In this document: positions 4,345 through 34,283 of the stretch, in pieces
Position numbering within the stretch: position 1 is the stretch's first letter
Layout: every line of letters starts with the position of its first letter
DNA from: Bacteroidota bacterium
Lineage (GTDB): Bacteria; Bacteroidota; Bacteroidia; 2-12-FULL-35-15
DNA length: 64,000 nt
Direction: 5' to 3'
Assembly (NCBI GenBank): GCA_016707685.1
Contig: JADJHE010000008.1
Span: 31,300 to 95,299 of the forward strand
The notes under the pieces: model-generated
Told to the model about the DNA's origin: nothing
The model's database searches: none
What the model saw: the letters and a program-made list of their open reading frames with translations, nothing else
Position numbers and translations under genes: made by a program

Positions 4345-7300
4345 TTGAAACAACTATTGAAAATAAAAATAAAAAACATTGCAACAATTGTTGCAATGTT
4401 TTTTTGTTTTCAATTAAGCGCTCAACAAATTAAATTTAATAATATTTCTATTCTGCAAGGACTCTCGCAAAGCACTGTCAATTGTATTCTTCAGGATAAG
4501 AGTGGGTTTATGTGGATTGGCACGCAAGATGGCTTGAACAAATATGATGGCTATACATTCAAATATTATAAACACCTGCCATCCCAACAAAATTCTATTT
4601 CCGATAACTTTATCCAAGCATTGTGTGAAGACAAAAATGGAAACATTTGGATAGGAACTTATGGTGGAGGATTGGATAAATTTAATCCCGTATCTGGAAC
4701 ATTCACATCCTATAAAAATGATAGCAGCAACAAGCAATCGCTAAGCAACAATGTGATAATGAGCATTGCTTGTGACAATAAAAACAACTTGTGGGTTGGG
4801 ACACAAAATGGCCTAAACTATTTTGACACGAGAACAGGGATTGTTGAACGTTTTCAGTATTCAAACAACAATAAACAAAGTATTAGTAGTAACAAAATTA
4901 GTTGTGTTTACATCGATAAAAAAGAACGCGTGTGGGTTGGAACAGCAGATGCAGGCTTTAATTTGTTTGATTCGGATAGAAAACTAATTGCTAAATTTTT
5001 AAACAATCCCAACGATTTAAACTCGGTTGCGAAAAATGTAATTAAAACAATTGTTGAAGATCATAATGGTTCAATTTGGGTGGGTACAGGTGGTGCAGGA
5101 GTTGATTGTTTTAATCCAATCAATTTCAGATTTGAACATTTTCAGAAAGATGAAAAAAATAAAAATACTTTGTCTAGTAATGATGTATGGGTTGTATTTG
5201 AAGATGCCGATTACAATATGTGGTTTGGAACCTATGGCGATGGTCTTTGTAAATATAATACCAAAGAAAAAATATTTAGTCAGTATAAAAACAACGCATC
5301 ACTTTCTGGTTCTTTGAGCAACAACATTGTTATGTGTGCTTTTCAGGACTACAGAGGATTATTTTGGGTTGGAACCTTGGGTGGTGGAGTAGACGTGTTT
5401 GATCCCGTTAAGAAAGGTTTTTTACATTTTAAACATCGACAAGAAGATGAAAATGCATTAAGCGAAAACATGGTGATGTGTTTTTATGAAGATAAAAATA
5501 AAGTCATTTGGATTGGTACGTATGGTGGCGGCTTAAATTTATTTGATCCTAAAACGGAAGCATTTAAAAAATATGTTCACGATGACAAAAACAATAAATC
5601 GATTAGTTCAAACATAATTCGAAGTGTTTTTCGTGATTCGAAAAACAATTTGTGGATAGGGACTTACGGTGGCGGCTTAAATTTATTTAATGAGCAAACA
5701 CAAACATTTACAGCCTACAAACACGAGGATAAAAATTCAACAACAATCAGTAGTGATGATGTTTGGTGTATAAAGGAAGATGCAGATGGAAACCTTTGGT
5801 TGGGAACATGGGGTGGCGGCTTAAATAAGTTTAATGTTCAAACAAAAGAGTTTACTAGTTATAAAAACAATGCATCGAATTTAAATTCGATTAGCAATGA
5901 TCGAGTGATTTCATTGTTAGTTGACAAAGAAGAGAACCTTTGGGTTGGCACAAATGGTGGCGGACTAAATTTATACAACAAAGCAACAAATGCGTTTATA
6001 AAATTTAGATACACAGAAACCGATTCTCAATCAATTTCAAGTGATAGAATTCGATGCATTATTCAAGACAAAGAAAACAATATATGGATAGGAACTGATG
6101 GTGGTGGGTTTAATAAGTATGATTTGAAAACAAAAAAATTCACTCGTTACTCTGAAAAACAAGGGCTGTGCAACAATGTAGTATACGGAATTGTAGAAGA
6201 TGAATATGGTAATATTTGGTTAAGCACAAATGGTGGGGTATCAAAATTTAATAGCAAGAAAAATAATTTTCAAAACTTTGATGTTCGAGATGGCTTGCAG
6301 AGCAATGAGTTTAATCAGGGAGCGTATTTAAAAACAAAAGAAGGTAAAATATATTTTGGAGGCGTAAACGGCTTTAATTCCTTTGAACCATCTTCGATTC
6401 GAAAGAATCCAAATCGACCACCCGTTTATATCACTTCTATTAAATTGTTTAATAACGAAATTACGAAGGATACCGCATCGAGTTATATTAAGTCGCTTGA
6501 CTTAAATTATTCCGACAATTTTTTATCCTTTGAATTTGCAGCGCTTGATTATACAGCACCTGAAAAAAATCAGTATGCATGTAAAATGGAAGGCTTTGAT
6601 AAAGATTGGATAAGCCTTGGTGGCAGACGATTTATAAGTTATACCAATCTTGATCCAGGAAAATATATTTTTAGAGTAAAGGGATCGAATAATGATGGTG
6701 TTTGGAATGAGCAAGGTAATTACATTGTTATTTACATTGCTCCTCCATTTTGGAAAACGTACTGGTTTTATGTTAGTGTGATTTTTTTAATGGCGCTGTT
6801 GGTTTACATCTATATTCGTGTACGAACAAAAAAGCTACAACGCGATAAAGAAGAGCTGGAGCGTGAGGTAAAATCACGTACATCGGAAGTTGTTCTCCAA
6901 AAGGATATTATTGAACGCAAGAACAAAGACATTACCGACAGTATTACGTATGCGCAACGAATTCAGCAAGCAATATTACCAACCGAACAGGTTGTAAAAA
7001 AGTTTTTTCCAAATTCGTTTGTATTGTATAAGCCAAAAGATATTGTAAGTGGCGATTTTTATTGGATGGAGCAGGTGGGGTCACAAAATTTTGTTGCGGC
7101 AGTAGATTGTACTGGTCATGGTGTTCCAGGAGCTTTCATGAGTATTGTAGGATACAACTTACTAAATCAAGCGGTGAATGAACGGGGAATTTATGAGCCG
7201 GCAAAAATTTTGGATGAAATGAACAATGGCTTATCAAAACAGTTGCGTCAACAAGGAGACTCTATGACAGTGCGCGATGGAATGGATTTGTCTCTTTGTT

Positions 7301-7683
7301 CTTTTGATATCAAAACAAACGTTTTGCAATATGCTGGTGCGAATAATTCATTGTGGCTTGTTCGGAACAATGAATTACATATTGTAAAAGCAGATAAATG
7401 TCCGATTGGAACGTATGTAGGAGAAACATTGAAATCATTTACAAATCATTCTATACAACTTCAGGAAGGTGATTTAATCTATTTATTTACGGATGGTTAT
7501 GCAGACCAATTTGGAGGCAAGGATGGTAAAAAATTTAAATACAAACAACTACAGCAAGTAATACTTGAGATGAATGATAAACAAATGGATGTTCAGCTGC
7601 AAGTATTAGAAAATACAATTAATAATTGGAGAGGCGATTTAGAGCAGGTGGATGATATTTTAATTGTTGGCATTAAAGTTTGA
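4345..7683 (+). CDS. membrane sensor: signal peptide, two Reg_prop beta-propellers, Y_Y_Y domain, one TM helix, coiled coil, PP2C/SpoIIE-type Ser/Thr phosphatase domain
   Basis: About 14 repeats fit the W[IV]GT..GGL..[FY]D Reg_prop pattern. A TM helix YWFYVSVIFLMALLVYIYI is present. C-terminal motifs VSGDFYW, DCTGHGVPGAFMS, RDGMD and FTDGYADQFGG match the RsbU/SpoIIE PP2C fold. Confidence 0.85.
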   Translation: MKQLLKIKIKNIATIVAMFFCFQLSAQQIKFNNISILQGLSQSTVNCILQDKSGFMWIGTQDGLNKYDGYTFKYYKHLPSQQNSISDNFIQALCEDKNGNIWIGTYGGGLDKFNPVSGTFTSYKNDSSNKQSLSNNVIMSIACDNKNNLWVGTQNGLNYFDTRTGIVERFQYSNNNKQSISSNKISCVYIDKKERVWVGTADAGFNLFDSDRKLIAKFLNNPNDLNSVAKNVIKTIVEDHNGSIWVGTGGAGVDCFNPINFRFEHFQKDEKNKNTLSSNDVWVVFEDADYNMWFGTYGDGLCKYNTKEKIFSQYKNNASLSGSLSNNIVMCAFQDYRGLFWVGTLGGGVDVFDPVKKGFLHFKHRQEDENALSENMVMCFYEDKNKVIWIGTYGGGLNLFDPKTEAFKKYVHDDKNNKSISSNIIRSVFRDSKNNLWIGTYGGGLNLFNEQTQTFTAYKHEDKNSTTISSDDVWCIKEDADGNLWLGTWGGGLNKFNVQTKEFTSYKNNASNLNSISNDRVISLLVDKEENLWVGTNGGGLNLYNKATNAFIKFRYTETDSQSISSDRIRCIIQDKENNIWIGTDGGGFNKYDLKTKKFTRYSEKQGLCNNVVYGIVEDEYGNIWLSTNGGVSKFNSKKNNFQNFDVRDGLQSNEFNQGAYLKTKEGKIYFGGVNGFNSFEPSSIRKNPNRPPVYITSIKLFNNEITKDTASSYIKSLDLNYSDNFLSFEFAALDYTAPEKNQYACKMEGFDKDWISLGGRRFISYTNLDPGKYIFRVKGSNNDGVWNEQGNYIVIYIAPPFWKTYWFYVSVIFLMALLVYIYIRVRTKKLQRDKEELEREVKSRTSEVVLQKDIIERKNKDITDSITYAQRIQQAILPTEQVVKKFFPNSFVLYKPKDIVSGDFYWMEQVGSQNFVAAVDCTGHGVPGAFMSIVGYNLLNQAVNERGIYEPAKILDEMNNGLSKQLRQQGDSMTVRDGMDLSLCSFDIKTNVLQYAGANNSLWLVRNNELHIVKADKCPIGTYVGETLKSFTNHSIQLQEGDLIYLFTDGYADQFGGKDGKKFKYKQLQQVILEMNDKQMDVQLQVLENTINNWRGDLEQVDDILIVGIKV

Positions 7684-10600
7684 TACCCATAAAAAGTACG
7701 TCATCTATTTGATCGTTTCCTTCTTTCCAACGATTAAAAAAGCGATCAATAATCATACTTTGTTTTTCAATTGGTAATACTTTGATGTCTTCTAATAAAT
7801 CTCTTATTGCAGCAATTTTCAGCTTTTTCCCCGATTCTCCACCAAACTGATCGGGATAACCATCTGTGAAGAAATACAAGAGATCTCCTTGGGCTAATTG
7901 AATATCGGTTGTTTCATATTCATTGGTTTCAGAGACTTCCTTTTTTAAGAGTTTTAATTCATTGTTTTTTGAAACAAACACAGGTCGTTTTGTGGAGCAA
8001 ATTCTGACGAAATAGGTTTCAATGTCAATTTCACAAACAACCAAATCAATACTGTCATTTGTTTGGTCTGGGTCGTCATCGAACTGATGCAAAAGAATTT
8101 TTGTTTCCAACTCAAGCGCTGCTAATGCGTGTGCAGGTGATGTAACCTCAGAGCGGGAAGTAATATCTTTTAACAACGTATTTCCAATCATACTCATAAA
8201 TGCACCTGGAACACCATGACCAGTTGCATCGGCACAAGCAATAATCAATTTATTTCCATACAATTCAAACCAATAAAAATCACCACTCACAATATCTCGA
8301 GGCTGAAAGAAAATAAAGGATTCCGGAAAAACATCTTTTAGTTTATTGATACCAGGTAATATAGCATCTTGTATCCGTTTGGCGTATCGAATACTATCTG
8401 TAATGTCTTTGTTTTTCTTTACAATCTCATCTTTTTGTTCTATTACTTCTCTTGTTTTTTCGTTGATTGTTTTTTGTAATTGTGCTTGAAAAACACGGTG
8501 ATTACGTTCTCGAATTTTGATAATGATAAAAATACCATAAGCAAAAATAAGAATACATATGAGGATAAACCAAGTGCGTTTCCAAAATGGAGGGTTGATA
8601 GTAATATTAACAGCGAAAGGAATTTCCGATGAAACGCCATCATTGTTGTATGCCTTTACTAAAAAGGTATAATTGCCATCCGTGATTTTTCCATATTGCG
8701 CAAAGTTGTTATCACTTTTATCCGACCAGTCTTCATCGAAGCCCTCTAGTTTATACTGATAACTAACATTGGTATTTGCTTTAAAACTAATTCCAATAAA
8801 ATCGAAACGAATTTTATAATTATCGTAATCAAGTACAATGTTTTTTAAGCTGTCAACATCCTTATCATTTAACTTGATGCTACTGATGTTTACGATTGGT
8901 GGAATAAGATTTTTTTTGTCTTTGTGCGGGTCAAATTTTATAGCACCATGTGTTGTTCCAAACCAAGCATTGCCGTATGCGTCTTTCGTTAATGCGTTAT
9001 AGTTACAATCGCCATTTATTCCATCGTTTTTATCATAGCGACTAATCAATCTGTTGCCTGCTTTAACCTTGCTTAATCCGCCTCTGTGACCAATCCAAAT
9101 GTTATTGGATGCATCATTGGTAACGCTATAACAATAGTTTGATTTTAATCCATTTTCTGTAGTTAATCGCTCAATATCGCCCTTTTTATTTACTATAAAA
9201 ACACCACTACCAAAAGTAGGTAACCAAAACCGTCCTTCATAATCTTCAAGAATTCCTGTAATGTTTATTAAGTCATTTCCATAGTATATTTTTTTATTTT
9301 TTACGGCATCGTTTGTATCAATGCTGCTTATAAAATTACTATGGGTTGCTATCCACAAGCGTTTGCTTTTATCCAAATAAAGTTGATTGATATTGTTGTG
9401 TGGTAATCCATTTTCAGTTGTATAGTGTGTGGTTATCTTTTTATCCGAATCCAGCTTAAATACACCCGCTTTCGTTGCCCAAAAAGTAATTTTATCGTAC
9501 CCCGTTACATACGAAATAGAATTACTTAAAGCATCATCATTTAAAAATATTGAACTAAAACGGCCAGTGGTGATATCAAAAATGTAAGCGCCATTTTTTT
9601 CTGTTCCTAAATAAAGTGTATTGTTGTCTTTTTTATAAATAGTAGTTACACGGTCGTCAACAAAACCATTTTTTGAATTATAAAACAGCCACTTTTCTTT
9701 TGAATTCAAATCTATTTTAAGCAATCCATTTTCGGTTCCAAACCATTTAACATCATTAATAAAAATAGAAGTAATGTTATTGGTATAATTTGGGTTTGTG
9801 TGCGAATAGAATGTGAATAGGTTGTCGGTTAGCATCACAGCGCCAGAGCCAAATGTTCCTACCCAAATATTGTCCTCGTGATCGGAATAAATTGTTTTTG
9901 TATAATTATTTCCTAAGCCGTTTGCTTCATTAAAAACAGCAAATTCATTGTAAGATAAGGTGTTTTTAGAAAGTGTTAATTTAACAACACCACTACCAAA
10001 TGTTGCTATCCAAAGATTGGAAACCTTATCTTCAAAAACAGCCTGTATGTTTAAAAGATCGCAACCTTCGGGTGGGTTGATTTTTTTGGTTGTATAGCTA
10101 TGTGCTTTTTTTGCAGATGGGCTAATAAGCATCAATCCCAAATCTTGCGTACCAACCCAAAAACTGGTAGAGTTTATTTTTTTAACAATACAGTTAATTT
10201 TCGTGTTTTCTATTTCACTAAGTGCAGCAATAAATTTTGGTTTTCTATTCTCGCCAACAAGTTCATATATAATCAACCCTTCGGCAGTGCCAACGAGTAA
10301 ATCATTGTTTTTAGAGAGTGCAATCGAGAAAACGTTGTATTGATCAAATTCGATTTTAAAGACTTCTACCTCAAACGATTTGTTAATTCTAAAAATTCCG
10401 TCATTTTGTGTAGCACACCAAATAAAGCCTTTGTCATCGCCAATGATTTGTGTAACTGGGCTTTTAGCAAATCCACTCGTATTAATGGATTTAAAGGTTT
10501 TTCCATCAAAAAAAGTAACGCTACCTTGGTTGTGACCAATCCATAAATTCCTGTTTTTATCTTTATATGTGCTAGTAATGAAGTTGTCGCTTAATCCTTC

Positions 10601-10873
10601 TTTGGTATAAAACGTTTTAAAGGTAACGCCATCAAATTTGCAAAAGCCCTCTCCAGTTCCTATCCATAAATAGCCATTTTTATCTTGTACGATTGAGTAT
10701 ACATACGGTTGTGTGATACCGTTATCAACACTGTAATTTTTAAATTGATATGCTTGAGAAAAGCCCGAAAAGCTCGATAGCAGCAGTAGGATAAATGCAA
10801 CTAATTTTTTGAAAATGCTTTTCAAGTTTCTAAAAATTAAGATTAGTAAGTGGTTGTTTTTTTCTTTTGTCAA
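7673..10873 (-). CDS. paralogous propeller/Y_Y_Y-TM-PP2C sensor phosphatase
   Basis: Same architecture and PP2C motifs: DIVSGDFYW, DATGHGVPGAFMS, FTDGYPDQFGG. It is convergent with the previous gene and overlaps it by 11 bp. Its 5' end overlaps the next gene by 44 bp, so the true start may be downstream. Confidence 0.85.
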   Translation of the reverse strand: MTKEKNNHLLILIFRNLKSIFKKLVAFILLLLSSFSGFSQAYQFKNYSVDNGITQPYVYSIVQDKNGYLWIGTGEGFCKFDGVTFKTFYTKEGLSDNFITSTYKDKNRNLWIGHNQGSVTFFDGKTFKSINTSGFAKSPVTQIIGDDKGFIWCATQNDGIFRINKSFEVEVFKIEFDQYNVFSIALSKNNDLLVGTAEGLIIYELVGENRKPKFIAALSEIENTKINCIVKKINSTSFWVGTQDLGLMLISPSAKKAHSYTTKKINPPEGCDLLNIQAVFEDKVSNLWIATFGSGVVKLTLSKNTLSYNEFAVFNEANGLGNNYTKTIYSDHEDNIWVGTFGSGAVMLTDNLFTFYSHTNPNYTNNITSIFINDVKWFGTENGLLKIDLNSKEKWLFYNSKNGFVDDRVTTIYKKDNNTLYLGTEKNGAYIFDITTGRFSSIFLNDDALSNSISYVTGYDKITFWATKAGVFKLDSDKKITTHYTTENGLPHNNINQLYLDKSKRLWIATHSNFISSIDTNDAVKNKKIYYGNDLINITGILEDYEGRFWLPTFGSGVFIVNKKGDIERLTTENGLKSNYCYSVTNDASNNIWIGHRGGLSKVKAGNRLISRYDKNDGINGDCNYNALTKDAYGNAWFGTTHGAIKFDPHKDKKNLIPPIVNISSIKLNDKDVDSLKNIVLDYDNYKIRFDFIGISFKANTNVSYQYKLEGFDEDWSDKSDNNFAQYGKITDGNYTFLVKAYNNDGVSSEIPFAVNITINPPFWKRTWFILICILIFAYGIFIIIKIRERNHRVFQAQLQKTINEKTREVIEQKDEIVKKNKDITDSIRYAKRIQDAILPGINKLKDVFPESFIFFQPRDIVSGDFYWFELYGNKLIIACADATGHGVPGAFMSMIGNTLLKDITSRSEVTSPAHALAALELETKILLHQFDDDPDQTNDSIDLVVCEIDIETYFVRICSTKRPVFVSKNNELKLLKKEVSETNEYETTDIQLAQGDLLYFFTDGYPDQFGGESGKKLKIAAIRDLLEDIKVLPIEKQSMIIDRFFNRWKEGNDQIDDVLFMGIKL

Positions 10874-11825
10874 ACTGTATTTTATAGTTTTGACCAGGAC
10901 TCCCGCCTATAGGCACTGTAAAGATAGGCAATGCATTTCCGTATTGATTGAGTACATACAAAGATACATTGTTGTTTTTAACAAGTACTTTTTTGTTTTT
11001 GATGAACTGTACATCCAGCGTTGTTTTCTTTTCTTTTTCAACCACCTTGTGATTGCTTGTTGCCCAAATATTATCGCCCGAAGAAGAGCTTAGTTCGCCT
11101 TTTTTTGCCATTGAAATAATATTGATGTTTCCATCGCTATCAAAGTCGAAATTGGAAACACTTATGGAAATAACATTTTCTTCAATAAAAGGATAAATGT
11201 GTGCAACATTGCTTTGGTTGTCCGAAAGTCGAAACGAGTATTCAAATGTAAATGCATTGCTTCCTTCTACAGGTTTGTTTTCAACTGGCGAAGCACTTAA
11301 AAAATAACGATATAGATTTCCATCATCGCCACTGATGCCTTCACAAATAATTTTAAAAATGTATCCATTTTGTGCTGGCACCCACTCGCCTTCGCTTGGG
11401 TTAAAAGGCCCAAAGGTGTACCACTCTTCGTCATAAATGTCTTCGCCACCAAATGTTTTGGTATAAATTAAATTTCCGCTTTTGTAGTTGCCCACTGGAT
11501 TATTGTTGCGTACATCTTTTGCTGTGTAGCATGTTTTTCCACCGTAAACAGTAAATTTTGTTTTGGTATTGTAGTCGGTCTTTTTTTCATCGTTTGAGCC
11601 ACTAGTTTCTGGATCAAACACTCGGATGTAGAAAGGCTTTACCTGAAACTTGGGAATTACAAAAAAGAAGGTTTGCGAAAAATCATCATCGCCCCATGAT
11701 TTATCTGCACCTTTTCCGAATGTAACTAAGTAGGGAATATTTTCTTCAACTGCAGGAATTTGCTGTGAGAAAGCACTATTGGAAAGGATAAAAATAAATA
11801 AAAAGTTGAGTACTCGTTTTAACAT
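10830..11825 (-). CDS. secreted hypothetical protein of 331 aa
   Basis: The signal peptide is MLKRVLNFLFIFILSNSAFSQQ. I recognise no catalytic motif. It sits between the thioredoxin-like gene and sensor phosphatase B on the same strand. Confidence 0.5.
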   Translation of the reverse strand: MLKRVLNFLFIFILSNSAFSQQIPAVEENIPYLVTFGKGADKSWGDDDFSQTFFFVIPKFQVKPFYIRVFDPETSGSNDEKKTDYNTKTKFTVYGGKTCYTAKDVRNNNPVGNYKSGNLIYTKTFGGEDIYDEEWYTFGPFNPSEGEWVPAQNGYIFKIICEGISGDDGNLYRYFLSASPVENKPVEGSNAFTFEYSFRLSDNQSNVAHIYPFIEENVISISVSNFDFDSDGNINIISMAKKGELSSSSGDNIWATSNHKVVEKEKKTTLDVQFIKNKKVLVKNNNVSLYVLNQYGNALPIFTVPIGGSPGQNYKIQFDKRKKQPLTNLNF

Positions 11826-11924
11826 ATAAGCGAAAGATATTTAACTCAACAGCAATTACCAACAAATTTGGACAAGTATCTCAAATTCAACGACCAACGG
11901 CCTTGAATTCTCTCTTGCCGTGTA

Positions 11925-14971: not shown

Positions 14972-16190
14972 TTGAAATTCAACGATTTTAATTTTGAGTC
15001 CAGCTTACAAGAAGGGCTTGATTCAATGGGCTTTGAAAACCCAACACCAATTCAGGAGCAAGCAATCCCAATTATATTAAGCAACAAAGACCTTATTGGT
15101 TGTGCGCAAACAGGAACGGGTAAAACAGCAGCATTCTTATTGCCTATTTTAAATAAGCTTACCGCTAATCCAACCGATTTAACCAATACGCTTATTATTG
15201 TACCAACACGTGAGTTGGCTTTACAAATAGATCATGCATTGCAAGGCTTCGTATTTTACATCGGTGAGCTCATTAGCCATTTATGGAGGTAGCGATGGAA
15301 GTGTGTTTGAACAAGAGAAAAAAGCATTAACACAAGGTGCCAATGTAATTATAGCAACACCAGGCCGATTGATGGCCCATTTAAACATGGGTTATGTGAA
15401 GCTGGATAACCTGCAACATTTAATATTGGACAGACTTGATCGTATGTTGGACATGGGCTTTGTGGATGACATTATTAAAATAACTACCTATTTGCCAAAA
15501 CCGACAAACATTGATGTTTTCGGCAACCATGGCACCACGCATTCGCACCTAGCAACCAAGTTGTTGAATGAGCCAGAACAAATTACCATATCACTTTCGA
15601 AACCTGCCGAAGGAGTGGTACAAGGAGCATATTTGGTGTACGATACACAAAAGAACAATTTGATAAAATCGCTTTTATCAGGCAAAGAAAAAGAGTTGAG
15701 TAGTGTCATCATCTTTTTATCGACTAAGATAAAGTAAAAAGAACTGGAACGCGATTTACAAAAGCAGGATTAAAAGCAAAAGCAATTCATTCCGATTTAG
15801 AACAAGGTGAAGCGCGAAGAAGTATTGCGAAACTTTAGAAGTAAACAATTACAAATATTGGTTGCAACCGATATTTTATCGAGAGGAATAGATATTGAAG
15901 ACATTGGATTGGTAATCAATTATGATGTGCCAGGCGATGCTGCGATTATATTCACCGTATTGGACGAACTGCACGCGCTGCTTCAACAGGTGTTGCATTA
16001 ACCTTTATTAATGAGTACGACCAACAAAAATTTGCACAAATAGAAACCTTGATTGCGGCAGAAGTAAAAAAATTACCATTGCCCGAAGGCTTTCAACCAG
16101 GCCCTGTGTATGCTCCCGAAGTAAAAGTGAAAAAACCTTTTGTAAAAGGTAAAAAGCCATTCAGAAAACCAAGACCACAAGGGAAGTAGC
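14972..16190 (+). pseudogene. decayed DEAD-box ATP-dependent RNA helicase
   Basis: Q-motif and motif I (AQTGTGKTAAF) and Ia (PTRELA) are intact. The DEAD box is replaced by DRLD at 15429-15440. At least four frame changes occur, near 15240, 15735, 15810 and 15960. The C-terminal HRTGRAGATG-like motif VI lies in yet another frame. Confidence 0.75.
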
Positions 16191-23481: not shown

Positions 23482-23579
23482 TCAGAAATTTGAGGCTGCA
23501 AAAGTACGCTTTTTTATTGAAGAATTAATGCCCTTTAATGTGTTTCCTTATTGATTTTTGCTTTATTTTAGATGAATAT

Positions 23580-25709
23580 ATGAAGATAAATAAAAAATAT
23601 ACGATTCTACTGTTTGTTTTGATAGCTATTCATTCGCTGTTTGCACAAACACCTGTTGTGGATAGTTTGAAAAAATTATCGACCGCAAATGTGAACGATA
23701 CCTTGAAAATGCATGCTTATGCAGAATTGACGTATGAGTACTTATCTATTGATATTGATTCGGCAAAAATGTTTGCCAACTTGGGGATAAAAAAATATAG
23801 CAACAACAAAAATAAATTATTGCTTTCGGATTTGTATGCAGCTTTGGGTACAGCTTATGGCTATGAACGTGATTTTGATAATAGTCTTGTCAATTTTAAT
23901 AAATCACTAGCCATTTTAAAAACAACAAAAGATAAAACGGCTATTTCAAAAACCTATTTCAATATCGGTTTGATATACTACTATACTGCTAAATACGATT
24001 TAGCAATTCAGCAATACATTGAAGCATTAAAATTATTAGAATCAATAAAAGACACGCAAACACTTCCTAATATTTACAATGGCTTGAGTGGTATGTACAA
24101 AGAGATTCGCAACTATGACGAAGCACTTAATTATGGACAAAAAGCCTTAAAATTATTTAGTCAGAATAAAGATTCAGTTGGCATGGCATCGGCATTAAAC
24201 AATGTTGGAAATGTATACGATTATCAGAATAAATTGGATGAGGCACTAGATAATTATCGCAAATCGATGCGAATGAAAGAGCTTATAAAAATGGAAAGAG
24301 GGATGTCTAGTACACTCAACAACATTGGAATTATATTATCAAAAAAAGATAGTGTGTTGCAAGCCTTGGAATATTACAACAAAGCATTAAGCTTTTCGTC
24401 TGTTAACTCCGATAAGATAAGTCAGGCTGTTTCCTATGATGGAATAGGAATGGTGTATTACAAAATGAAACAATACGATAAAGCGCTTTCGTTTTTAGAA
24501 AAAAGCATCGCTATATCTACCGATATTGATTCAAAATTGGATATTGTAAGTACGTATGAAAAAATTGCTTTATGTTATGCAGCTAAAGGGAATTACAAAA
24601 AAGCATTTGATTACCAGCAGTTATTATTTGCAACAAAAGATTCTATTTTTAATGTGGAAAGTTCGAGACAAGTTAACGAGTTGGCTACACAATACGAAAC
24701 AGAAAAAAAACAATTGTTGATTGATAATTTGAATAAGGACAATGCTTTAAAGCAAGAAGAGTTGGCAAAATCCGAATTGCAAGTGAAGCAACAAAACATG
24801 CAAATCATGTTTTTTATTTTAGCGGTATTATTGCTCTCGATATTGTCGTTTTTCATTTTTAGAAGCTACAAACAAAAGAAACAATCGGCAGAAATTATTC
24901 TTTCTCAAAAAGAAGAAGTTGAGCGCCAGCGTGATTTAGTAGAAGAAAAAAGCAAAGAAATTACAGATAGTATTCATTATGCAAAGCGCATTCAGCAAGC
25001 ATTGTTGGCATCCGATACATTTCTAAAAAAGCACATTGCCGATTATTTTATTTTTTACAAACCAAAGGACATTGTGAGTGGCGATTTTTATTGGGCAAAT
25101 GTGATTGATGGTAAATTTGTATTGATAACAGCCGATTGCACAGGACATGGAGTTCCGGGTGCATTCATGAGTTTGTTAAACATTTCATATTTAAACGAAG
25201 CAATTATTGAAAAAAGAATGGATGCTCCGGATAAAATTTTGGATTATGTTCGTTCGCAAATTATTCAATCATTAAATCCAGAAGGCTCAGAAAATGAAGG
25301 AAGAGATGGTATGGATGCTACACTTTGTATTTATGATTTTAAAGGAATGTGGTTGCGTTTTTCTGCAGCAAACAATCCTTTGTGGTTGTATCGTAACAAT
25401 GAAATAAAAGAATTTTCGGCCGATAAAATGCCTGTTGGAATGTATCATGGCGAACAAAAACCCTTTACACAACAAACAATTGGATTAAGAAAGGATGATA
25501 TCGTTTATACATTTACAGATGGATTTGCGGATCAATTTGGAGGCGAAAAAGGCAAAAAATTTAAATATAAAAATCTTCAGCAATTGTTGCTCAGCAATGC
25601 CAGTAAGCCAATGGCAGAGCAAAAACAAATCCTTGAAAAAACATTAAGAGATTGGCAAGGCAATATGGAGCAAGTGGATGATATTCTTATAGTTGGAATT
25701 CGGTTTTAA
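23580..25709 (+). CDS. signal peptide, TPR-repeat periplasmic domain, TM helix, coiled coil, PP2C/SpoIIE phosphatase
   Basis: About eight TPR-like repeats (..A..Y..A...Y....). TM helix IMFFILAVLLLSILSFFIF. Phosphatase motifs DIVSGDFYW, DCTGHGVPGAFMS, RDGMD and FTDGFADQFGG. The start was set at MKINKKY, which gives a proper signal peptide. Confidence 0.85.
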   Translation: MKINKKYTILLFVLIAIHSLFAQTPVVDSLKKLSTANVNDTLKMHAYAELTYEYLSIDIDSAKMFANLGIKKYSNNKNKLLLSDLYAALGTAYGYERDFDNSLVNFNKSLAILKTTKDKTAISKTYFNIGLIYYYTAKYDLAIQQYIEALKLLESIKDTQTLPNIYNGLSGMYKEIRNYDEALNYGQKALKLFSQNKDSVGMASALNNVGNVYDYQNKLDEALDNYRKSMRMKELIKMERGMSSTLNNIGIILSKKDSVLQALEYYNKALSFSSVNSDKISQAVSYDGIGMVYYKMKQYDKALSFLEKSIAISTDIDSKLDIVSTYEKIALCYAAKGNYKKAFDYQQLLFATKDSIFNVESSRQVNELATQYETEKKQLLIDNLNKDNALKQEELAKSELQVKQQNMQIMFFILAVLLLSILSFFIFRSYKQKKQSAEIILSQKEEVERQRDLVEEKSKEITDSIHYAKRIQQALLASDTFLKKHIADYFIFYKPKDIVSGDFYWANVIDGKFVLITADCTGHGVPGAFMSLLNISYLNEAIIEKRMDAPDKILDYVRSQIIQSLNPEGSENEGRDGMDATLCIYDFKGMWLRFSAANNPLWLYRNNEIKEFSADKMPVGMYHGEQKPFTQQTIGLRKDDIVYTFTDGFADQFGGEKGKKFKYKNLQQLLLSNASKPMAEQKQILEKTLRDWQGNMEQVDDILIVGIRF

Positions 25710-25746: not shown

Positions 25747-28700
25747 GTGCCGTTTTTTCTTTTATTTAGTAGTGTTTTTAACGATTTTATTGTGCCCACA
25801 ACAGTACTAAAAAAATATTTTTTATTCGTAGTTGTTTTTTTGTTCGTGCTTTTTTCGAAAGCACAACAAATGAACTTCAAAAACTTTTCTATTGAGGATG
25901 GTCTTCCTCAGTCTCAAATTATTGATATCTGTCAAGACAATACGGGTGTTATTTGGTTTGCTACCAATGGTGGTGGTGTGAGTAGATACAATGGGAATAA
26001 ATTTCTAAACTACAATACAAAAGATGGTTTAAGGAATAACCGTGTTTACGATATTTTCCAAGATTCAAAAAATACCATTTGGATAGGAACAGGCAAAGGG
26101 CTGAATAAATTTCACAATAATAAACTTGTTCATATTAGTGATGCGCAACTTGATCAGAAATCGATTCACAAAATTTATGAAAACACGAATGGTGAAATTT
26201 GGGTAGGTACGAGCGATGGAATTTTTATTTACAACGGTAAAAATTTTAGACCTTTTGTTGGTAACGATTCTATTGGTGCTTTTCAAGTATGGTCTATTCA
26301 GCAAGATAAGGCTGGAAATACGTGGATAGGAACATTGATGAATGGCGTTTTCTGTTATGATGGGAAACAAATGATTCATTTTACAAAAGAAAATGGATTG
26401 ATTGATTCAAAAAACAGAGATATTCTAATCAAAGGAAATCAGGTTTGGATTTCTACTTACAGAGGAATTAATATTTATGATTTATCAAAATCTTATTCGG
26501 GGAATCGTAAACTTGACACATTAAAATTTAATGGCAAACCATATCTTGAAACCGTTTATCGTTTTTACAAAGACACGAGTGGCGCGATATGGGCAGGAGT
26601 TGGTTCGGGGGTTGTGAAAATTACTTATGGGAACATTAAACATATTACAAAGCAAAACGGACTTTGTAGTAATATGATTTGTGGCATTACACAAGATAAA
26701 GAGGGAAATTTGTGGTTTGGTTCATTTGGAGGCGGTGTTAGTAAATACAGAAATGAATTATTTGAGAACATCAATGAAAATCAAGGATTAGCAAACAATA
26801 CGGTTATGTCTTTTTTCAAAGACAGTAAAAACAATATGTGGATTGGTACTTGGGGAGGTGGTGTTTCCAAATTAGATTTAACAACACTAGAAAAACACGA
26901 CTCTATTTCAATTCAAAATTTTATTCAATCAAAAAATGGTTTGGCATTTAACAATGTTTGGAGTATTTGCGAAGACAAGGCAGGAAAAATTTGGCTAGGG
27001 ACTTCAGCTCAAGGTGTAAGTGTATACGATGGGAAAGATTTTAAAAACTATCATATCAAAGATGGTTTGCATGGTATTCGAATTCAAACAATATTGTGCG
27101 ATAAAAAAGGAAATATTTGGATGGCCAATGAAAACGGCTTAGATAAATTTGATGGTAAAACATTTACATATTACGGTGAAAAGGAAGGAATGTCGGCAGA
27201 AGGAGTAAATGCTATTTATGAAGACAACGTTGGAAACCTTTGGTTTGGTTCACCCGATCGAATTATAAAATACGATGGTAAAATTTTTACCACCTTACTT
27301 CGACCAGGCGGTTTCCCTAAAATACGAAATATTATTCGAGACAAGTTTGGTTACATGTGGTTTAGTACAGATGCAGGTGCATGTGTTTATACGGGAAGTA
27401 AATTTTATTTGGTTTCAGAGTCGGATGGTTTAAGTTCAAATACAGTTTATTATGTAAAACCCGATGAAGATGGGAATTTGTGGTTGGGAACAAATAACGG
27501 GATTGATAAGCTCGACCTTTATAAATTTGTAAACAACAATGAAGTAGAGATAAAACATTATGGTAAGGAAGAAGGTTTTATGGGAGTTGAATGCAACCAA
27601 AATGCTTTTTATAAAAACGATGACGGAAAGCTGTGGATAGGAACAATTGGTGGTGTTACCATTTACAATCCTAAAGAAGAACGAATTAATAAAATCGAAC
27701 CCCAAACACACATTACAGGAATTCGTTTATTTTTAGAGGATACAAATTTTAAAAAGTATTCGGATAGTATATTAGATGGACTTCCGATTAATCTTGTTCT
27801 TCCATACGATAAAAATCACATTACGTTTGACTTTATAGGAATATCACATACAATTCCAAACAAAGTAAAATACCAGTTTATGCTGGAAGGAGCCGATCAA
27901 AATTGGTTGCCTGAAGGGAAAGAAATAAGTGCTACGTATTCAAATTTGCCTCCTGGTAAATACACGTTTGTATTAATTGCAAAAAACAATGATGGTATCT
28001 GGAATAAAAACCCTGTTCGTTTTTCTTTCGAAATAGTTCCTCCTTTTTGGCGTCAGTCTTGGTTTTATCTATTGTCGGGTGCAATTGGGATAACAGCAAT
28101 TTATCTTTTTGTTAAAATGCGTGAGCATAGTTTGCAAAGAAGTAGAATGCGTTTAAAAGAAGAAGTAGCAAACAGAACAAAAGAATTGGAAGAAGAGAAA
28201 GAAAAATTGCAAGAAGCATATTCTGAAATTGATGAAAAAAACAAAGACATTACCGATAGTATAAAGTATGCGAAACGAATCCAAGAAGCAATTTTGCCTG
28301 CCGATTCAATTTTTAAACAACACTTGCCAAATTCGTTTGTGTTGTATAAACCAAAAGATATTGTAAGTGGAGACTTTTACTGGTTAGAAAAATGGGGACA
28401 TCAAATTTTGATAGCAGCAGTTGATTGCACTGGACATGGCGTTCCTGGTGCCTTTATGAGTATTGTTGGGCACAACTTGTTAACTCAAACAGTAAATGCA
28501 TTGGGGTTATCGAAACCCGCTTTGGTATTAAATGAAGTAAACCAACAACTCTCCAAAAAACTAAATCAAAATCCAGAAGAAGCAACCGTTCGCGATGGAA
28601 TGGACATTGCTCTGTGTGGAATTAATTACGTTAAAAAAACAATTGAATTTGCGGGAGCCAATAATCCCGTTTGGATTATTAAAAATGGGAAGGAGTTGGT

Positions 28701-29002
28701 TCAACTAAATGGAGACAAATTTCCAATAGGCGCTTTTGTTGGAGAAGAGCTTCAGCAATTTACCAATCATGAATGGCAATTACAAGAAGGTGATATCATT
28801 TATTTGTTTACTGATGGTTATGCCGATCAGTTTGGTGGACCTAAAGGAAAAATTCAAATACAAACAATTCGAAGAGTTGCTATTGTCTGTTTGCAATAAA
28901 CCATTTGCAGAACAAAAAGAACGATTAGAAAAAACAATAGAAGAGTGGCGAGGAGAGTTGGAGCAGGTAGATGATATATTGGTTATTGGAATAAAGATAT
29001 AA
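25747..29002 (+). CDS. propeller/Y_Y_Y-TM-PP2C sensor phosphatase. The C-terminal end is frameshifted at an A5 run (28848-28852).
   Basis: ORF 25747..28899 ends FTDGYADQFGGPKGKIQIQ*. The conserved tail (K)FKYKQ...EQVDDILVIGIKI continues in ORF 28736..29002 in the +1 frame. The paralogs read this region uninterrupted. Confidence 0.75.
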
Positions 29003-29005
29003 AAG

Positions 29006-32000
29006 TTGAAACTACTAAAAAAATACTACTACTACTTTTGTTTTTTGTTGTTAGCGCCACGAAGGCGCAATACAATGGCTTTCCTATTCGAAACTACTCC
29101 CAAAAGGAATACAATGCATTTATGCAAAATTGGTATTGTGTTCAAGATAAACGTGGTGTTTTATATTTTGGAAATAGTAGTAATGTATTGGAATACGATG
29201 GAAAAAACTGGCGTAAAATTCCAATTGTTAAAGGAGTTGCTGTTCGCTCACTATACATAAATAGTCAAGGGACCATATTTGTTGGAACGGTTGGTGATTT
29301 TGGTTATTTAGCACCTCAAAAAAATGGAGATTTAATTTATCAATCATTAAGCTCCTTGTTACCTGCTGAAAAAAGAACATTTTCAGATGTGTGGCACATA
29401 CAAGAATTGAATGGTGCAATTCATTTTCAAACGAGTGAAAATATATTTGTTTATGAAAAGAATAAACTAAAAGTTGTTGCACCAACGCAAAACACATTTG
29501 CTTCCATCTCGTTTAAAATAAACGATCTTCTATTGCTTCGTGAGCGTAAAATTGGATTGATGAAGTGGGACGGCAAATCTTTGTCATTGTTTCCGGGTGG
29601 AGCTTTTTTGCAGAACACTGCAGTTGTAGGGATGATTAATTTTCCAACCCAACACAGCAAGAATATTTTAACAATCTCAGTTGATGAAGGATTTGCCTTC
29701 ATCGATACTGAAAAAGGAAAAATTACAAAATACAATGCTCCTTCCGAAAACGAATTAAATACGATTGGCGTTTTAGGAATGCAGTGGTTTAATGATTCAA
29801 CAATAATTTTAAATACACGCTCAGGTGTTTATTTTTTAGATAACAAACTAAACATCATTCGAACAATAACCAAAGCAGATGGATTGGTAGATGAATCGGT
29901 AGCAGACATTTTTTTTGATTTGCAAAAAGAAATGTGGCTAAGCACAAATAATGGAATTAGTAAAGTATCGGTAAATTCTCCCTTTTATTATTACAATGCT
30001 ACAGCAGGATTAAATGGAAATATTGAAGCTATTACAACACTTGGAAATACAATTTACGTTGGAACAACATCTGGAATGTATGTTGCAGAATTAGGAACAA
30101 ACAATAGAAGTGGCGCTCCTCAAAAATTAGTTTTTAATCAAGTTGAAGGCACTTATTTTGAGACATGGAATTTTAGAGTGGCAGAGAACAGGGTATATGG
30201 AGCAACAAGTGATGGGGTTTTCGAAATTGTAAACAAAAAAGTGGCTCGTCTTACGAAGGCATATTCGAACACAATTTATATTCACGAAAACAACCGAATG
30301 TTTATCGGTGAAAAAGATGGTTTACGAGTTTTAGATAAAAAGGGAGAAAAATGGATTGAATCGCACTTTTTTAGTATTCCAACAAGCGATATTATGAACT
30401 TTGTATTGGAGGGAATAAATGAGAAGAGTGAGTCTTTCGTCTGGTTTAGCACTCGAAACAGTGGTGTATATAAAATGATCATACAACCGGATTATAATTA
30501 TGCACTAACACATTTTGATACAACAAATGGATTGCCGAATGAACAGGTATTTATATTTAAAAAAAATCAGGAGGTATACTTCAATGGAAATCATTTTGTT
30601 TATCAATTTGATAAAAAGGCATCGAACCCAAAGAAAAAATTTGTTGTTGTCAATAAAAATGCATCAGCTTATAACCATAATGCAGAACCAATTCCACTTT
30701 TAAATATTGAAAATCCGAACACCCAAAAAACAGTTAAAGCAATAGCGGCAATCGAAGACCAAGGTTATACCTATTACCAATCCGATTCGTCTATTTTGTG
30801 GATAGGTTTAACAGATGTACTCACGCGCTATGATGCAACAGTTCAAAAGGAATATTCACCCGTATATACTACACTTATCAGAAAGGTTACTATTGCAAAC
30901 GATTCAACTGTTTTTGCAGGGACATTTTCTGTTCCTTTTGAAAACGGCTATGTGGTTGTTGATACACAAACCACGAACTTTATTCCAGAAATTGCTTATA
31001 AATACAACACATTGGATTTTAACTATTCAGCAGCATTTTATGATCGAGAGGATAAAATAAATTTTAGTTATAAATTAGTTGGTTTTGATACGGCTTGGAG
31101 TGAGTGGTCTAGCTTGAATTATAAACAATACACCAATTTGTATGAAGGCGAATACTCCTTTGAAGTAAAAGCAAAAAACATTTATGGACATGAAAGTAAA
31201 ATAGCAAACTATCGTTTTGTTATTCTACCTCCTTGGTATAGATCTTTCATTGCTTATATCATCTATTTTATTGCATTTATTATTTTGATTATCATAATTG
31301 TTCGCATAAGTGTTTGGCGATTAAGAAAAGCGAAAATAAAACTTGAAAAGATTGTTGACGAAAGAACCGCAGAAGTTGTAAAACAAAAAGAAGAACTACA
31401 GCAAAAAAGCGAAATTATTGAAGTTGCATACAATGATATCAAATCAAGTATTAATTATGCAAAACGAATTCAAGAAGCAATTCTTCCTTTGAATGAAGAA
31501 ATAAAAAAATCTTTCCCAGAATCATTCATTTTGTTTAAACCAAGAGATGTTGTAAGTGGAGATTTTTATTGGTTTACGAAAACCGCAGGAAAAACAATTA
31601 TTGCATGCGTTGATTGCACAGGCCATGGCGTACCTGGTGCTTTTATGAGTATGATTGGCAATACGCTATTAAACGAAATTGTGGTCGAAAAAAATATTAC
31701 ACAACCCAATCAAATACTTAACTTACTTCATGAGCGTGTTCGACAATCGTTAAAGCAGGATATGGAAAACACAGAGACACGCGATGGAATGGACATTGCT
31801 ATTTGTGTAATTGATGATGCGAAAGAGCAATTGCACTATGCAGGTGCAAATCGCTCCTTGGTAATTATTCGCGACAAGTCCTTAATTGAACTAAAAGCAG
31901 ACAAACAGCCTATAGGTGGTGATCAAATGGAGCAAGACCGTGTTTTCAAAAACATCGAATTTAAGCTTCATAAAAACGATGTTATTTACATGACAACAGA

Positions 32001-32193
32001 TGGTTATGCGGATCAATTTGGAGGAGAAAAAGGGAAAAAATTTATGGTAAAACGCCTACATCAGCTATTGATAGATTTGAATGATAAAAAAATGGATGTA
32101 CAAAGCATGCTGTTAAAAAATACTATTGAAGACTGGCAAGGGAATCTGGAACAAGTAGATGATATATTGGTAATTGGAATAAAAATCTCATGA
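29006..32193 (+). CDS. divergent-propeller/Y_Y_Y-TM-PP2C sensor phosphatase. The 5' end is probably frameshifted at an A7 run.
   Basis: The PP2C motifs VVSGDFYW, DCTGHGVPGAFMS, RDGMD and TTDGYADQFGG are intact. If the A7 run at 29017-29023 is read as A8, the TTG/ATG at 29006 gives MKLLKKILLLLLFFVVSATKAQ, a canonical signal peptide. As given, the signal peptide is split between two frames. Confidence 0.75.
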
Positions 32194-34283
32194 AAAAAAT
32201 AATCGGAATTCTATTTCTTTCAATTTTGACAAACAGTTTTATGTTTGCTCAAAAAAGTAAAGTTGTAGTTGATAGTATACAAAAGCTATTGACTGTTACA
32301 AACGATGATGCCTTGATTGTTGAATACAAAAATCAACTAGCCTATGAATATGTTATTGACGATGCTGTTAAAGCAAAAAAAACTGCAACAGAAGCACTTT
32401 CCTTGGCAACAAAAATTAATAATCAGTTAGGAATTTTAAATGCGAATAACAATCTTGGTCTTGCTTGTTATTATACAAACGACTATGACCAAGCATTAAA
32501 GCATTATTATATTTCTCGAGATATTGCTAAGGAATTAAAAAACAATTCGAAATTGGCCGTTGCTTTAAATAACATAGGTTTAGTATACGATGACAAAGCA
32601 GATTATAATAATGCATTAACGTATTATTTGCAATCGTTAAAGCTGGTGGAAGGCACAGGTGAAAGTAAGTCTCAGCTAGCGAGTACATTAAATAACATTG
32701 CATTAATATATCAAACACAAGGAAAATACGAAGAAGCATTATCGTTTCACAACCGAGCATTAAAAATAAAAAGGGAGATTGGAAACAAGCGAGGTGAAGG
32801 AAGCTCTCTACACAATATCGGTTTAGTATATAAACTAAAAGGAGAGTATGATAAAAGTTTAGAGTTCTATCATCGAGCACTTGAACTTCGTAAGTTAATT
32901 AATGATGAGTCGGGAGTTGGACTAACACTCAATAATATTGGGAGTGTATATGATTCAAGAGGAGAATACGATAAGGCACTTCGTTATTTTGAAGAAGCAT
33001 TGGTTATACGTGAAAAATCGCAAGATAAATACGGATTAGCAATTACCTTGTTTAGTATGGGAAGTGCTTATTGTGAACGTAAAGAGTATAAAAAGGGAAA
33101 CGAATTCATAGAACGAGCAATGAACATTGCAAAGGAGATAGGTGCAAAAGAGCTATTAAAGCATGGCTATGAAACCTATGCACTTATTTATGCAGCCCAA
33201 GGCGATTACAAACATGCATACGAAAATCAGAAAGAATACATTGCTGTTAAGGATTCTATTTTAAATGAAACTACAATTCAGCAGTTGAATGAATTGCAAA
33301 CAAAATATGAAAGCGAAAAGAAGCAAAAAGAATTAGAGTTGGTTACCAAGGAAAGCAAAATTCAAGCGCTCGAGTTGAATAAAAATAAATTATGGATGTA
33401 TGTAATGGTTATTGCAATTCTTTTAGTAATAAGTCTTGCCGTACTTTTATTTAATCGCTATAACCTTAAACAAAAAGCAAACGAATTATTAGCACATCAA
33501 AATGCTGAAATAACACAACAGAAAAAGGAAATTACGGATAGTATTAATTATGCTAAACGTATTCAAGAATCTATTTTACCACCTCAAGATCATTGGAAAA
33601 AATTATTACCGAACAGTTTTATTTTTTATCGCCCGAAAGACATTGTAAGTGGCGATTTTTATTGGATAGAGCAAAAACAAAACATTGTTTGCTTTGCAGC
33701 TGTAGATTGTACTGGACATGGGGTCCCAGGGGCTTTGATGAGTGTAGTAGGCTTTAATTTACTGACACAAGCGGTGAATGAAGTGGGTTTAACAAAACCT
33801 TCTGAAATATTAGAACATTTAGATGCAGGTGTTACAAAAACATTGCGACAAACAGAACATGGTAAAGGAGTAAAAGATGGAATGGATTTATCTTTGTGTT
33901 CGTTTGATACAACAACGAATTTGCTGCAATATGCAGGCGCATTTAATGCGTTGTATTACGTTAGAGAAAATACGTTACACGAAATAAAAGCAGATAAATT
34001 TCCAATTGGAGTAAATTTAGATGGCATTGTAGATAATTATAAAAATCATACGATTCAATTACAAAAAGGAGATTGTGTGTATTTGTTTTCGGATGGATAT
34101 GCTGATCAGTTTGGTGGTTCAAAAGGAAAAAAATTCAAATACAATCAATTGAAAAATCTATTTATAGAGATTGCTAAACAGCCAGTTGATGAGCAAAAAC
34201 AAATTATTGCTGATGCTTTTGATGTGTGGAAAGGTGGTTTAGAGCAAGTGGATGATGTTGTAGTAATAGGATTGAAAATCTAA
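32190..34283 (+). CDS. signal peptide, TPR domain, TM helix, PP2C/SpoIIE phosphatase
   Basis: TPR repeats. TM helix LWMYVMVIAILLVISLAVLLF. Phosphatase motifs DIVSGDFYW, DCTGHGVPGALMS, KDGMD and FSDGYADQFGG. The start overlaps the upstream stop by 4 nt (ATGA). Confidence 0.85.
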   Translation: MKKIIGILFLSILTNSFMFAQKSKVVVDSIQKLLTVTNDDALIVEYKNQLAYEYVIDDAVKAKKTATEALSLATKINNQLGILNANNNLGLACYYTNDYDQALKHYYISRDIAKELKNNSKLAVALNNIGLVYDDKADYNNALTYYLQSLKLVEGTGESKSQLASTLNNIALIYQTQGKYEEALSFHNRALKIKREIGNKRGEGSSLHNIGLVYKLKGEYDKSLEFYHRALELRKLINDESGVGLTLNNIGSVYDSRGEYDKALRYFEEALVIREKSQDKYGLAITLFSMGSAYCERKEYKKGNEFIERAMNIAKEIGAKELLKHGYETYALIYAAQGDYKHAYENQKEYIAVKDSILNETTIQQLNELQTKYESEKKQKELELVTKESKIQALELNKNKLWMYVMVIAILLVISLAVLLFNRYNLKQKANELLAHQNAEITQQKKEITDSINYAKRIQESILPPQDHWKKLLPNSFIFYRPKDIVSGDFYWIEQKQNIVCFAAVDCTGHGVPGALMSVVGFNLLTQAVNEVGLTKPSEILEHLDAGVTKTLRQTEHGKGVKDGMDLSLCSFDTTTNLLQYAGAFNALYYVRENTLHEIKADKFPIGVNLDGIVDNYKNHTIQLQKGDCVYLFSDGYADQFGGSKGKKFKYNQLKNLFIEIAKQPVDEQKQIIADAFDVWKGGLEQVDDVVVIGLKI

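Follow-up and report, generated by a model that had tools for sequence, protein, structure and literature searches.

What does a periplasmic sensor of Bacteroidota control when its cytoplasmic output is a phosphatase and not a histidine kinase? Accounts of signalling in this phylum usually centre on hybrid two-component systems (HTCS), pairs of extracytoplasmic function (ECF) sigma and anti-sigma factors, and SusR-like regulators. In the stretch of DNA analysed here (64,000 nucleotides of a Bacteroidota bacterium, positions 31,300 to 95,299 of contig JADJHE010000008.1, assembly GCA_016707685.1; hereafter the window), periplasmic sensors of the HTCS type also occur, in multiple copies, joined to a Ser/Thr phosphatase output of the PP2C class. 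An original prediction made from the sequence alone had listed six such genes and the start of a seventh, had named a STAS protein, a substrate kinase or a direct phosphoprotein target as possibilities, and had left the target unknown. We found that the phosphatase domains are of the SiaA type, which makes the target less open than had been claimed and turns it into a question that can be tested concretely and cheaply, through the genes for DUF1987 and DUF6272 proteins.

The window contains seven genes of this architecture, here called A to G (Table 1), and we have very little doubt that they form a single family of inner-membrane sensor phosphatases with one membrane pass, as paralogs of old standing. 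Open reading frames (ORFs) were present at or near the positions first given for A to F. Pfam matches in A, B and D ran from Reg_prop (E 3.9e-74, 2.8e-37 and 1.2e-58, respectively) through Y_Y_Y (1.5e-17, 3e-14 and 9.8e-16) to SpoIIE (1.6e-19, 5.4e-12 and 4.7e-18). Many TPR families matched C and F, with TPR_12 at 6.3e-41 and 1.7e-45 and SpoIIE at 2.5e-20 and 3.2e-20, while E returned only Y_Y_Y (2.6e-9) and SpoIIE (6.2e-19). In all six the score to SpoIIE (PF07228) was 46.5-73.7 bits, above the Pfam gathering cut-off of 25, and none had a Pfam match to HisKA, HATPase_c, Response_reg or HTH_AraC at E<=0.01, in agreement with the domain assignment originally made. A hydropathy scan found in each an N-terminal signal-like segment ending in AQ and exactly one strong transmembrane segment between sensor and PP2C. 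The topology proposed for the set therefore stands as far as signal peptide, single transmembrane helix and PP2C domain are concerned; among these six, Reg_prop repeats were detected only in A, B and D, and none in E. The N-terminal 750 residues of E are nevertheless collinear with B, D and G (~21-23% identity, E 1e-9 to 1e-11), the alignments with B and D spanning ~770-820 residues at 21% identity, and because of this weak collinear homology E is, as judged by alignment, a strongly diverged member of the propeller sensor type despite having no Reg_prop match.

Gene G leaves the window before its output domain is reached. Its predicted sensor contains 12 Reg_prop repeats (Pfam Reg_prop E 2.1e-71), and its start is the TTG at 61976, one base from the 61975 originally given. 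The count of seven is justified because orthologs of G at 94-97% identity (P0121-P0127, 1065-1084 aa) carry Reg_prop and Y_Y_Y and end in SpoIIE; the asnS-G synteny is kept in locus L082. The paralogs share 34-59% identity in the PP2C region but only 20-38% across the sensors, and the genes occupy three places in the window (A/B, C-F and G), so that their treatment as one seven-member system was an assumption. Recent tandem duplication was considered and rejected, because the PP2C regions are only 34-59% identical. Within the second group, C-D-E-F looks like one transcription unit, since the start of F overlaps the end of E by 4 nt.

The sensor parts have well-known counterparts. An AlphaFold2 model of A (mean predicted local distance difference test score 88.2) matched the sensor of BT4663, a heparin-sensing HTCS (4A2L/4A2M), with a Foldseek E of 2e-72, a TM-score of 0.84-0.88 and 33% identity. 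As regards the putative coiled coil of the original prediction, the same model has long helices at aa 806-841 and at 851-877, its confidence being low at 840-862. In C and F, the TPR parts matched the FimS TPR sensor-kinase model (NCBIfam NF053520) at E 3.8e-36 and 2e-40.

The identity of the output was addressed by searching the phosphatase regions against solved structures and curated families. When the C-terminal 277 residues of F were compared with all of the PDB (phmmer), the SiaA PP2C domain 6K4E was retrieved at E 8.5e-38 and the next protein, RssB, at 2.5e-4. A profile of five PP2C regions from the window found 6K4E, from Pseudomonas aeruginosa SiaA, at E 5.6e-54, compared to 0.16 for RsbX and 0.17 for Rv1364c, with RssB likewise among matches that all had E>=0.14; SpoIIE was not retrieved. 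The NCBIfam model for SiaA (NF038263, prot_phos_SiaA) was the top match for A, C and F (E 3.6e-63, 4e-50 and 8.3e-61), the match covering only the C-terminal ~280 model positions, about 376-657. The model of A superimposed on 6K4E with a TM-score of 0.90-0.91 and a root-mean-square deviation of 2.1 Å, and 6K4E was the only PP2C among the top 50 Foldseek matches. The linker and PP2C region together are 27-34% identical to SiaA. Judged by profile and by predicted structure, the output is specifically SiaA-like and not RsbU- or SpoIIE-like, and the first candidate substrate is therefore SiaC (DUF1987), with SiaB (DUF6272) as its kinase, in place of a classical STAS/RsbV-RsbW pair. Each protein thus combines a sensor module already known from Bacteroidota with an output of the SiaA type.

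The catalytic residues were compared across the set. The motifs SGDFYW, RDGMD and TDGYADQFGG and a fourth one, which had been attributed to every copy, occur exactly only in A, D and E. Gene B has DATGHG, NDSID and TDGYPDQFGG, C has TDGFADQFGG, and F has ...GALMS, KDGMD and SDGYADQFGG. The metal-binding motifs GD, D.xGHG, (M/I)D, DG and DD do not vary when A, B, C, E and F are aligned, nor in the repaired D, and even the PP2C of B, the most divergent of the set and without the KxPIG loop, keeps every metal-binding Asp. We rejected the idea that these proteins are phosphatase-dead pseudoenzymes, as the alignment indicates that all metal-binding residues are kept.

Table 1. Sensor-phosphatase genes of the window and other features mentioned in the text, with their positions
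Feature	Located in	Position	Strand	Description	Basis
Gene A	Window	4345..7683	+	1112 aa; signal peptide, double beta-propeller ~aa 32-680, Y_Y_Y Ig-like domain 735-791, transmembrane helix ~806-826, helical linker, SiaA-type PP2C ~890-1111	Pfam, hydropathy, AlphaFold2 model
Gene B	Window	7673..10873	-	Up to 1066 aa; propeller, Y_Y_Y, transmembrane helix aa 769-787, PP2C	Pfam, hydropathy
Gene C	Window	23538..25709	+	Signal peptide, TPR array, transmembrane helix aa 423-441 of long ORF, SiaA-type PP2C	Pfam, NCBIfam
Gene D	Window	25747..29002	+	Propeller, Y_Y_Y, transmembrane helix, PP2C; frameshift in A-run 28848-28852	Pfam, alignment to L084/L085
Gene E	Window	29006..32193	+	TTG start 29006; diverged propeller, Y_Y_Y, transmembrane helix aa 737-755 of ORF, PP2C	
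Gene F	Window	32190..34283	+	697 aa; signal peptide, TPR array, transmembrane helix aa 403-421, SiaA-type PP2C	Pfam, NCBIfam, PDB
Gene G (seventh)	Window	61976..64000	+	TTG start; first 674 codons, runs off window; signal peptide, double propeller	
331-aa protein	Window	10830-11825	-	Clear signal peptide, no Pfam or NCBIfam match	
Counterpart of 331-aa protein	L001	16487-17464		325 aa	
DEAD helicase gene	Window	14972-15737		Split into two ORFs	
SprB-repeat secretion gene	Window	56075-58338		Split into three ORFs; intact in L082, 754 aa	
Stand-alone SiaC	L037	955-1401			Bacteroidales synteny
Stand-alone SiaC	L159, L161-L164	~7001-7400			Bacteroidales synteny
RsbW-like HATPase_c_2 gene	L001	1864-2277	-	137 aa	NCBIfam, PDB
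ECF/DUF4154/PP2C cassette	L065	7568-10846			
ECF/DUF4154/PP2C cassette	L003	3047-7068			
ECF/DUF4154/PP2C cassette	L021	~6865-10846			
Propeller-cyclase-HD gene	L065	10992-14906		1304 aa; propeller and Y_Y_Y fused to class III nucleotidyl cyclase and HD	
Cyclase-HD gene	L159	8608-10056		Guanylate_cyc and HD	

In P. aeruginosa, SiaA, whose PP2C domain is a dimer (PMC7647112), dephosphorylates SiaC at T68 against the opposing kinase SiaB, and unphosphorylated SiaC activates the cyclase SiaD (PMC7647112, PMC8457831). By analogy, we infer for the window proteins a signalling mechanism, a substrate, a many-to-one wiring and a downstream effector as follows. A periplasmic module, either a BT4663-like double propeller with Y_Y_Y (A, B, D, E, G) or a FimS-like TPR array (C, F), would bind its ligand; binding would alter the packing of the dimeric transmembrane and linker helices and so switch the PP2C domain. 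The phosphatase, of the SiaA type and putatively Mg/Mn-dependent, would strip a Ser/Thr phosphate from a small SiaC-type protein (DUF1987, STAS-like fold), which would be kept phosphorylated by a kinase of the SiaB type (DUF6272) whose gene would lie elsewhere in the genome, and the unphosphorylated SiaC would bind and control an effector. Several different signals would in this way converge on the same or a few phosphoprotein switches; such many-to-few convergence is probable given outputs so similar behind sensors so different (20-38% identity). We put the probability that a SiaC-type partner switch is the target, in trans, of these sensor phosphatases working in parallel at roughly 55%; that SiaC itself is the substrate in this organism is an even call or slightly less.

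Support for this reading comes from other Bacteroidota loci in which partner genes are linked to the same architecture. In a Flavobacteriales metagenome-assembled genome (MAG; locus L065), an operon encodes a SiaB-like DUF6272 protein, a TPR-transmembrane-SpoIIE protein and SiaC. In locus L078, five tandem TPR-PP2C genes are followed by a convergent SiaC gene (E 1.5e-12 to PDB 6K4F) and by a SiaB-like gene that matches DUF6272 at E 3.6e-40 and 6KKO chain A at E 3.2e-6; the genes of that array share 38-39% identity with F along its entire length. At the position of T68, SiaC homologs of Bacteroidota retain Ser or Thr (EYFN[TS]SS). Stand-alone SiaC genes are common in Bacteroidales, in the conserved context tamB-tsaD-siaC-(rseC/rnf) with no adjacent kinase or phosphatase, and this frequent separation of SiaC from kinase and phosphatase genes fits both action in trans and the orphan state of the sensor phosphatases.

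Several findings weigh on the other side. Hidden Markov models (HMMs) of SiaB and SiaC found neither gene in the six-frame translation of the window, and no GGDEF gene was seen here, though the known effector of SiaC is a GGDEF cyclase. Among ~155 loci around family members, SiaC was present in only 2-3 and SiaB in only 2, making linkage rare; the same HMMs, run over all 164 loci, gave no linked cases besides L065, L078 and L037, and a search for SiaC homologs placed none on the contigs of close relatives among the 120 matches listed. The scores of 171-214 bits to the SiaA equivalog are far below its 700-bit cut-off, A to F have no HAMP domain whereas SiaA has one, and the substrate specificity of a PP2C domain is unreadable from ~30% domain identity. 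Lastly, an RsbW-like HATPase_c_2 gene (NCBIfam RsbW E 1.8e-13; PDB 6M36 E 1e-7) lies 8 kb from the ortholog of A in locus L001, where it adjoins a DUF4175 gene.

That gene is one of the arguments for a classical switch of the RsbU type, in which the phosphatase would dephosphorylate an RsbV-like STAS anti-anti-sigma factor; this protein would in turn sequester the RsbW-like kinase/anti-sigma factor, so that a sigma factor is released. Homologs of the window proteins are automatically annotated as 'serine phosphatase RsbU', ECF sigma genes lie near some family members (6 of 150 small neighbouring ORFs), and an rsbW-rsbV-rsbU cluster was reported in a marine flavobacterial single-cell genome, but was absent from all other Flavobacteria-class genomes available in 2009 (PMC2668756). 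The 23-kb L001 locus contains no STAS gene, and its synteny with the window stops before the RsbW-like gene. In the window itself, as originally stated, no STAS, HATPase_c_2, anti-sigma or Ser/Thr kinase (Pkinase) gene was found among ORFs >=70 aa. Around family members elsewhere, STAS and HATPase_c_2 were not among the 25 most frequent Pfam families of the 150 small ORFs, each occurring in <=2, while DUF4154 was found in 8 and SiaC in 2. Together with the profile match to SiaA, which no RsbX, Rv1364c, RssB or SpoIIE structure approached, these negative results make an RsbU-type switch improbable.

The near absence of partner genes from ~155 loci would also agree with direct action on other phosphoproteins (for example proteins phosphorylated by Hanks-type kinases, or a transcription factor or enzyme), with each paralog having its own target and no partner-switch module. 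The age and divergence of the paralogs, and their position beside unrelated housekeeping genes, point the same way. However, the PP2C domain and its linker helix are highly conserved across the family and specifically resemble SiaA, which together with its partners forms a dedicated switch; where signalling neighbours were found beside the same architecture, they were SiaB and SiaC; and there is no Ser/Thr kinase gene in the window. We consider direct action the least probable of these possibilities, a SiaC-type switch being preferred. An extension of that preferred reading to the phylum, in which propeller, TPR and HAMP sensor-phosphatase arrays act in trans on one or few orphan SiaC proteins with a DUF6272 kinase and an effector that is not a GGDEF protein and possibly a class III cyclase-HD protein, is tentative and on balance doubtful. 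Two cases bear on the effector: the propeller-cyclase-HD gene of L065 lies 1.2 kb from the siaB/PP2C/siaC operon, and the cyclase-HD gene of L159 ~1.2 kb from an orphan SiaC. With only these two, cyclase-HD proteins could be what SiaC acts on in Bacteroidota in place of a GGDEF effector.

How many of the seven genes work depends on how the reading frames are interpreted. Of the six genes first described as complete, A, B, C and F are, while D and E are frameshifted here. Two metagenome contigs (L084 and L085), collinear with the window over 21.3-44.3 kb and 89-92% identical in DNA over the C-F segment, carry D and E each as a single ORF, with D there ~1103 codons long. Compared with these, the A-run in D has 5 A in place of 7, and E is without one base near 29020, in its start region. 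The segments 25747-29002 and 29006-32193 therefore correspond to genes and not to single intact ORFs: the length of the latter is not divisible by 3, its mechanical ORF being 29038-32193, and D after frame repair is ~1084 aa long with the C-terminus ...QVDDILVIGIKI. Two further genes of the window, the DEAD helicase and SprB-repeat genes, are also split.

Small indels of this kind suggest either homopolymer-type assembly errors or a decaying genome. If the array were partly decaying, with D and E genuine pseudogenes, five working genes would remain rather than seven. The 2-base deletion in D and the 1-base deletion in E relative to intact orthologs are compatible with decay, as are the other broken genes. 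Yet both indels lie in or beside A-runs, as is typical of sequencing or assembly error, the frames of D and E are otherwise fully open, with conserved motifs flanking each break on both sides, and several broken housekeeping-type genes in one window favour poor sequence quality over selective loss. Since other genes of the window are split too and the relatives have intact copies, we think that the breaks are mostly sequence errors rather than pseudogenes, and that partial decay of the array is unlikely.

Other details of the gene models were revised. The coordinates of B hold, with the strand corrected to minus, which makes B convergent with A (11-nt overlap); its true start is probably ~15 codons downstream of the longest ORF start. 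For C, whose ortholog is intact in L084 and L085, the start at 23580 (MKINKK...) given originally is to be preferred, on plausibility, to the first ATG at 23538. The gene for the 331-aa protein with a signal peptide lies directly upstream of B and overlaps its start; the same arrangement is found in L001, and the protein may serve sensor B as a periplasmic accessory.

We then considered how widespread the architecture is. A search with A returned at least 8000 candidates at E<=1e-10; nearly all of the 120 matches listed, from which the composition was read, combine Reg_prop, Y_Y_Y and SpoIIE, and likewise for G. They are entered in databases as 'ligand-binding sensor domain-containing protein/serine phosphatase RsbU', as 'SpoIIE family protein phosphatase' or as 'rsbU 6', among other names. 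In an exhaustive HMMER search with the 280-residue PP2C region, E<=1e-30 was reached by 22,088 clusters at 50% identity. When each GTDB species was represented by one genome, a scan gave at least 600 rows, and the best 80 loci were analysed: almost all are titled Bacteroidota (Flavobacteriales, Bacteroidales, Sphingobacteriaceae and Chitinophaga among others), and their 103 PP2C ORFs comprise 37 with TPR, 30 with propeller, 25 with HAMP and 11 with other sensors. The architecture, presented originally as unusual, is thus a populous, automatically annotated family shared by thousands of database proteins and not a new kind of system, and its 'replacing' of hybrid two-component systems finds no support in 64,000 nucleotides. 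In the literature searched, we found no study of propeller/Y_Y_Y-PP2C or TPR-PP2C proteins, or of SiaABC-like modules in Bacteroidota. The genes themselves being ordinary, what is added here is the specific SiaA/SiaB/SiaC hypothesis; if a many-to-one SiaABC switch is true, it would add to the HTCS and ECF systems of the phylum a parallel layer of signalling by Ser/Thr phosphorylation that is so far uncharacterised.

The arrangement in arrays is also conserved, as the original prediction had proposed to check. The C-D-E-F array is kept in L084 and L085, with F orthologs at 93-96% amino acid identity, and the convergent A/B pair and its flanks in L001 (MAG GCA_029237775.1), where the A ortholog is 64% identical and the B ortholog is 1051 aa long. 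Elsewhere, tandem arrays of five genes (L078) and four genes (L055) were found. The best database match to A was 65% identical (one partial match reached 72%), compared to 93-97% for orthologs of G and F in public metagenomes; the A/B end of the window may be variable in the lineage, or its counterpart may be absent from the databases. Two proteins of 1549-1592 aa (P0043 and P0100) combine Reg_prop, Y_Y_Y, HisKA, HATPase_c, Response_reg and SpoIIE, the PP2C domain standing at the usual place of AraC in an HTCS-like chain, and this type may be an evolutionary intermediate between HTCS and sensor-PP2C architectures.

The surroundings of the genes are those of ordinary chromosomal DNA with housekeeping genes (G+C 33-38%). 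The window also encodes a pyridoxal phosphate enzyme of Cys/Met metabolism, rnc, fabF, purN, rnhA and asnS, as well as RND and MacB efflux genes and type IX secretion system cargo genes with SprB repeats; the Cys/Met-metabolism enzyme, a thioredoxin-like gene, an ABC-F gene and asnS stand next to the sensor-phosphatase genes. When ORFs within 10 kb of 80 family members were clustered, no dominant neighbour emerged, the largest cluster covering 12 of the 80 loci, and recurrent neighbours were mostly housekeeping synteny (dnaE, rimM, rpsP, ferritin and a LOG-like gene). One recurrent cassette, present in 9-12 of the 80 GTDB loci and absent from the window, consists of a divergent ECF sigma gene, a DUF4154 gene (YfiR/HmsC-like, periplasmic), a gene for a ~297-aa protein with weak TPR similarity, and a HAMP-type SiaA-like PP2C gene; it recalls the logic of YfiR-YfiN, but with a phosphatase output.

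Among known systems, SiaA (PA0172) is, like the window proteins, a membrane-anchored sensor PP2C phosphatase, and shares with them the metal-binding motifs GDFY, DCxGHGVPGA, MD, DG..DQ.GG and DD. It differs in having two transmembrane segments and a HAMP domain where the window proteins have a signal peptide, one transmembrane helix and a large propeller/Y_Y_Y or TPR domain, and in its place in the siaABCD operon with the GGDEF cyclase gene siaD, no such partner gene being near the window genes; HAMP-type relatives occur in other loci. RsbU, RsbP and SpoIIE of Bacillus share with the window proteins the PPM fold, the Pfam SpoIIE match and the logic of an input domain that controls dephosphorylation of a small switch protein. 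The window proteins, in contrast, have no significant profile similarity to solved members of that group, no RsbU N-terminal domain and no STAS or RsbW neighbours. The transmembrane RsbU of Chlamydia is a comparable partner-switching phosphatase.

On the sensor side, the Bacteroides HTCS proteins BT4663, BT3049 and BT4673 (4A2L/4A2M, 3V9F, 3OTT) have the same double propeller and Y_Y_Y followed by a single transmembrane helix, and continue into a cytoplasmic HisKA-HATPase-REC-AraC chain where the window proteins have PP2C. No polysaccharide-utilisation locus (PUL) lies beside the window sensor genes, and C and F have TPR rather than HTCS-type sensors. These two resemble instead the FimS-type TPR sensor kinases of Porphyromonas, whose N-terminal signal/transmembrane segment, TPR array and transmembrane part they match at scores below the 600-bit FimS equivalog cut-off, the output being a histidine kinase in FimS and PP2C in C and F. 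A parallel for the exchange of outputs is BguR of marine Bacteroidota, in which the same HTCS-type sensor with a single transmembrane helix has been shown experimentally to drive a non-kinase output (bioRxiv 10.64898/2026.01.10.698779). In BguR this output is a DNA-binding GerE domain acting directly on a laminarin PUL, while in the window proteins it is an enzyme that needs a phosphoprotein substrate; BguR is a precedent for output swapping on the propeller/Y_Y_Y sensor.

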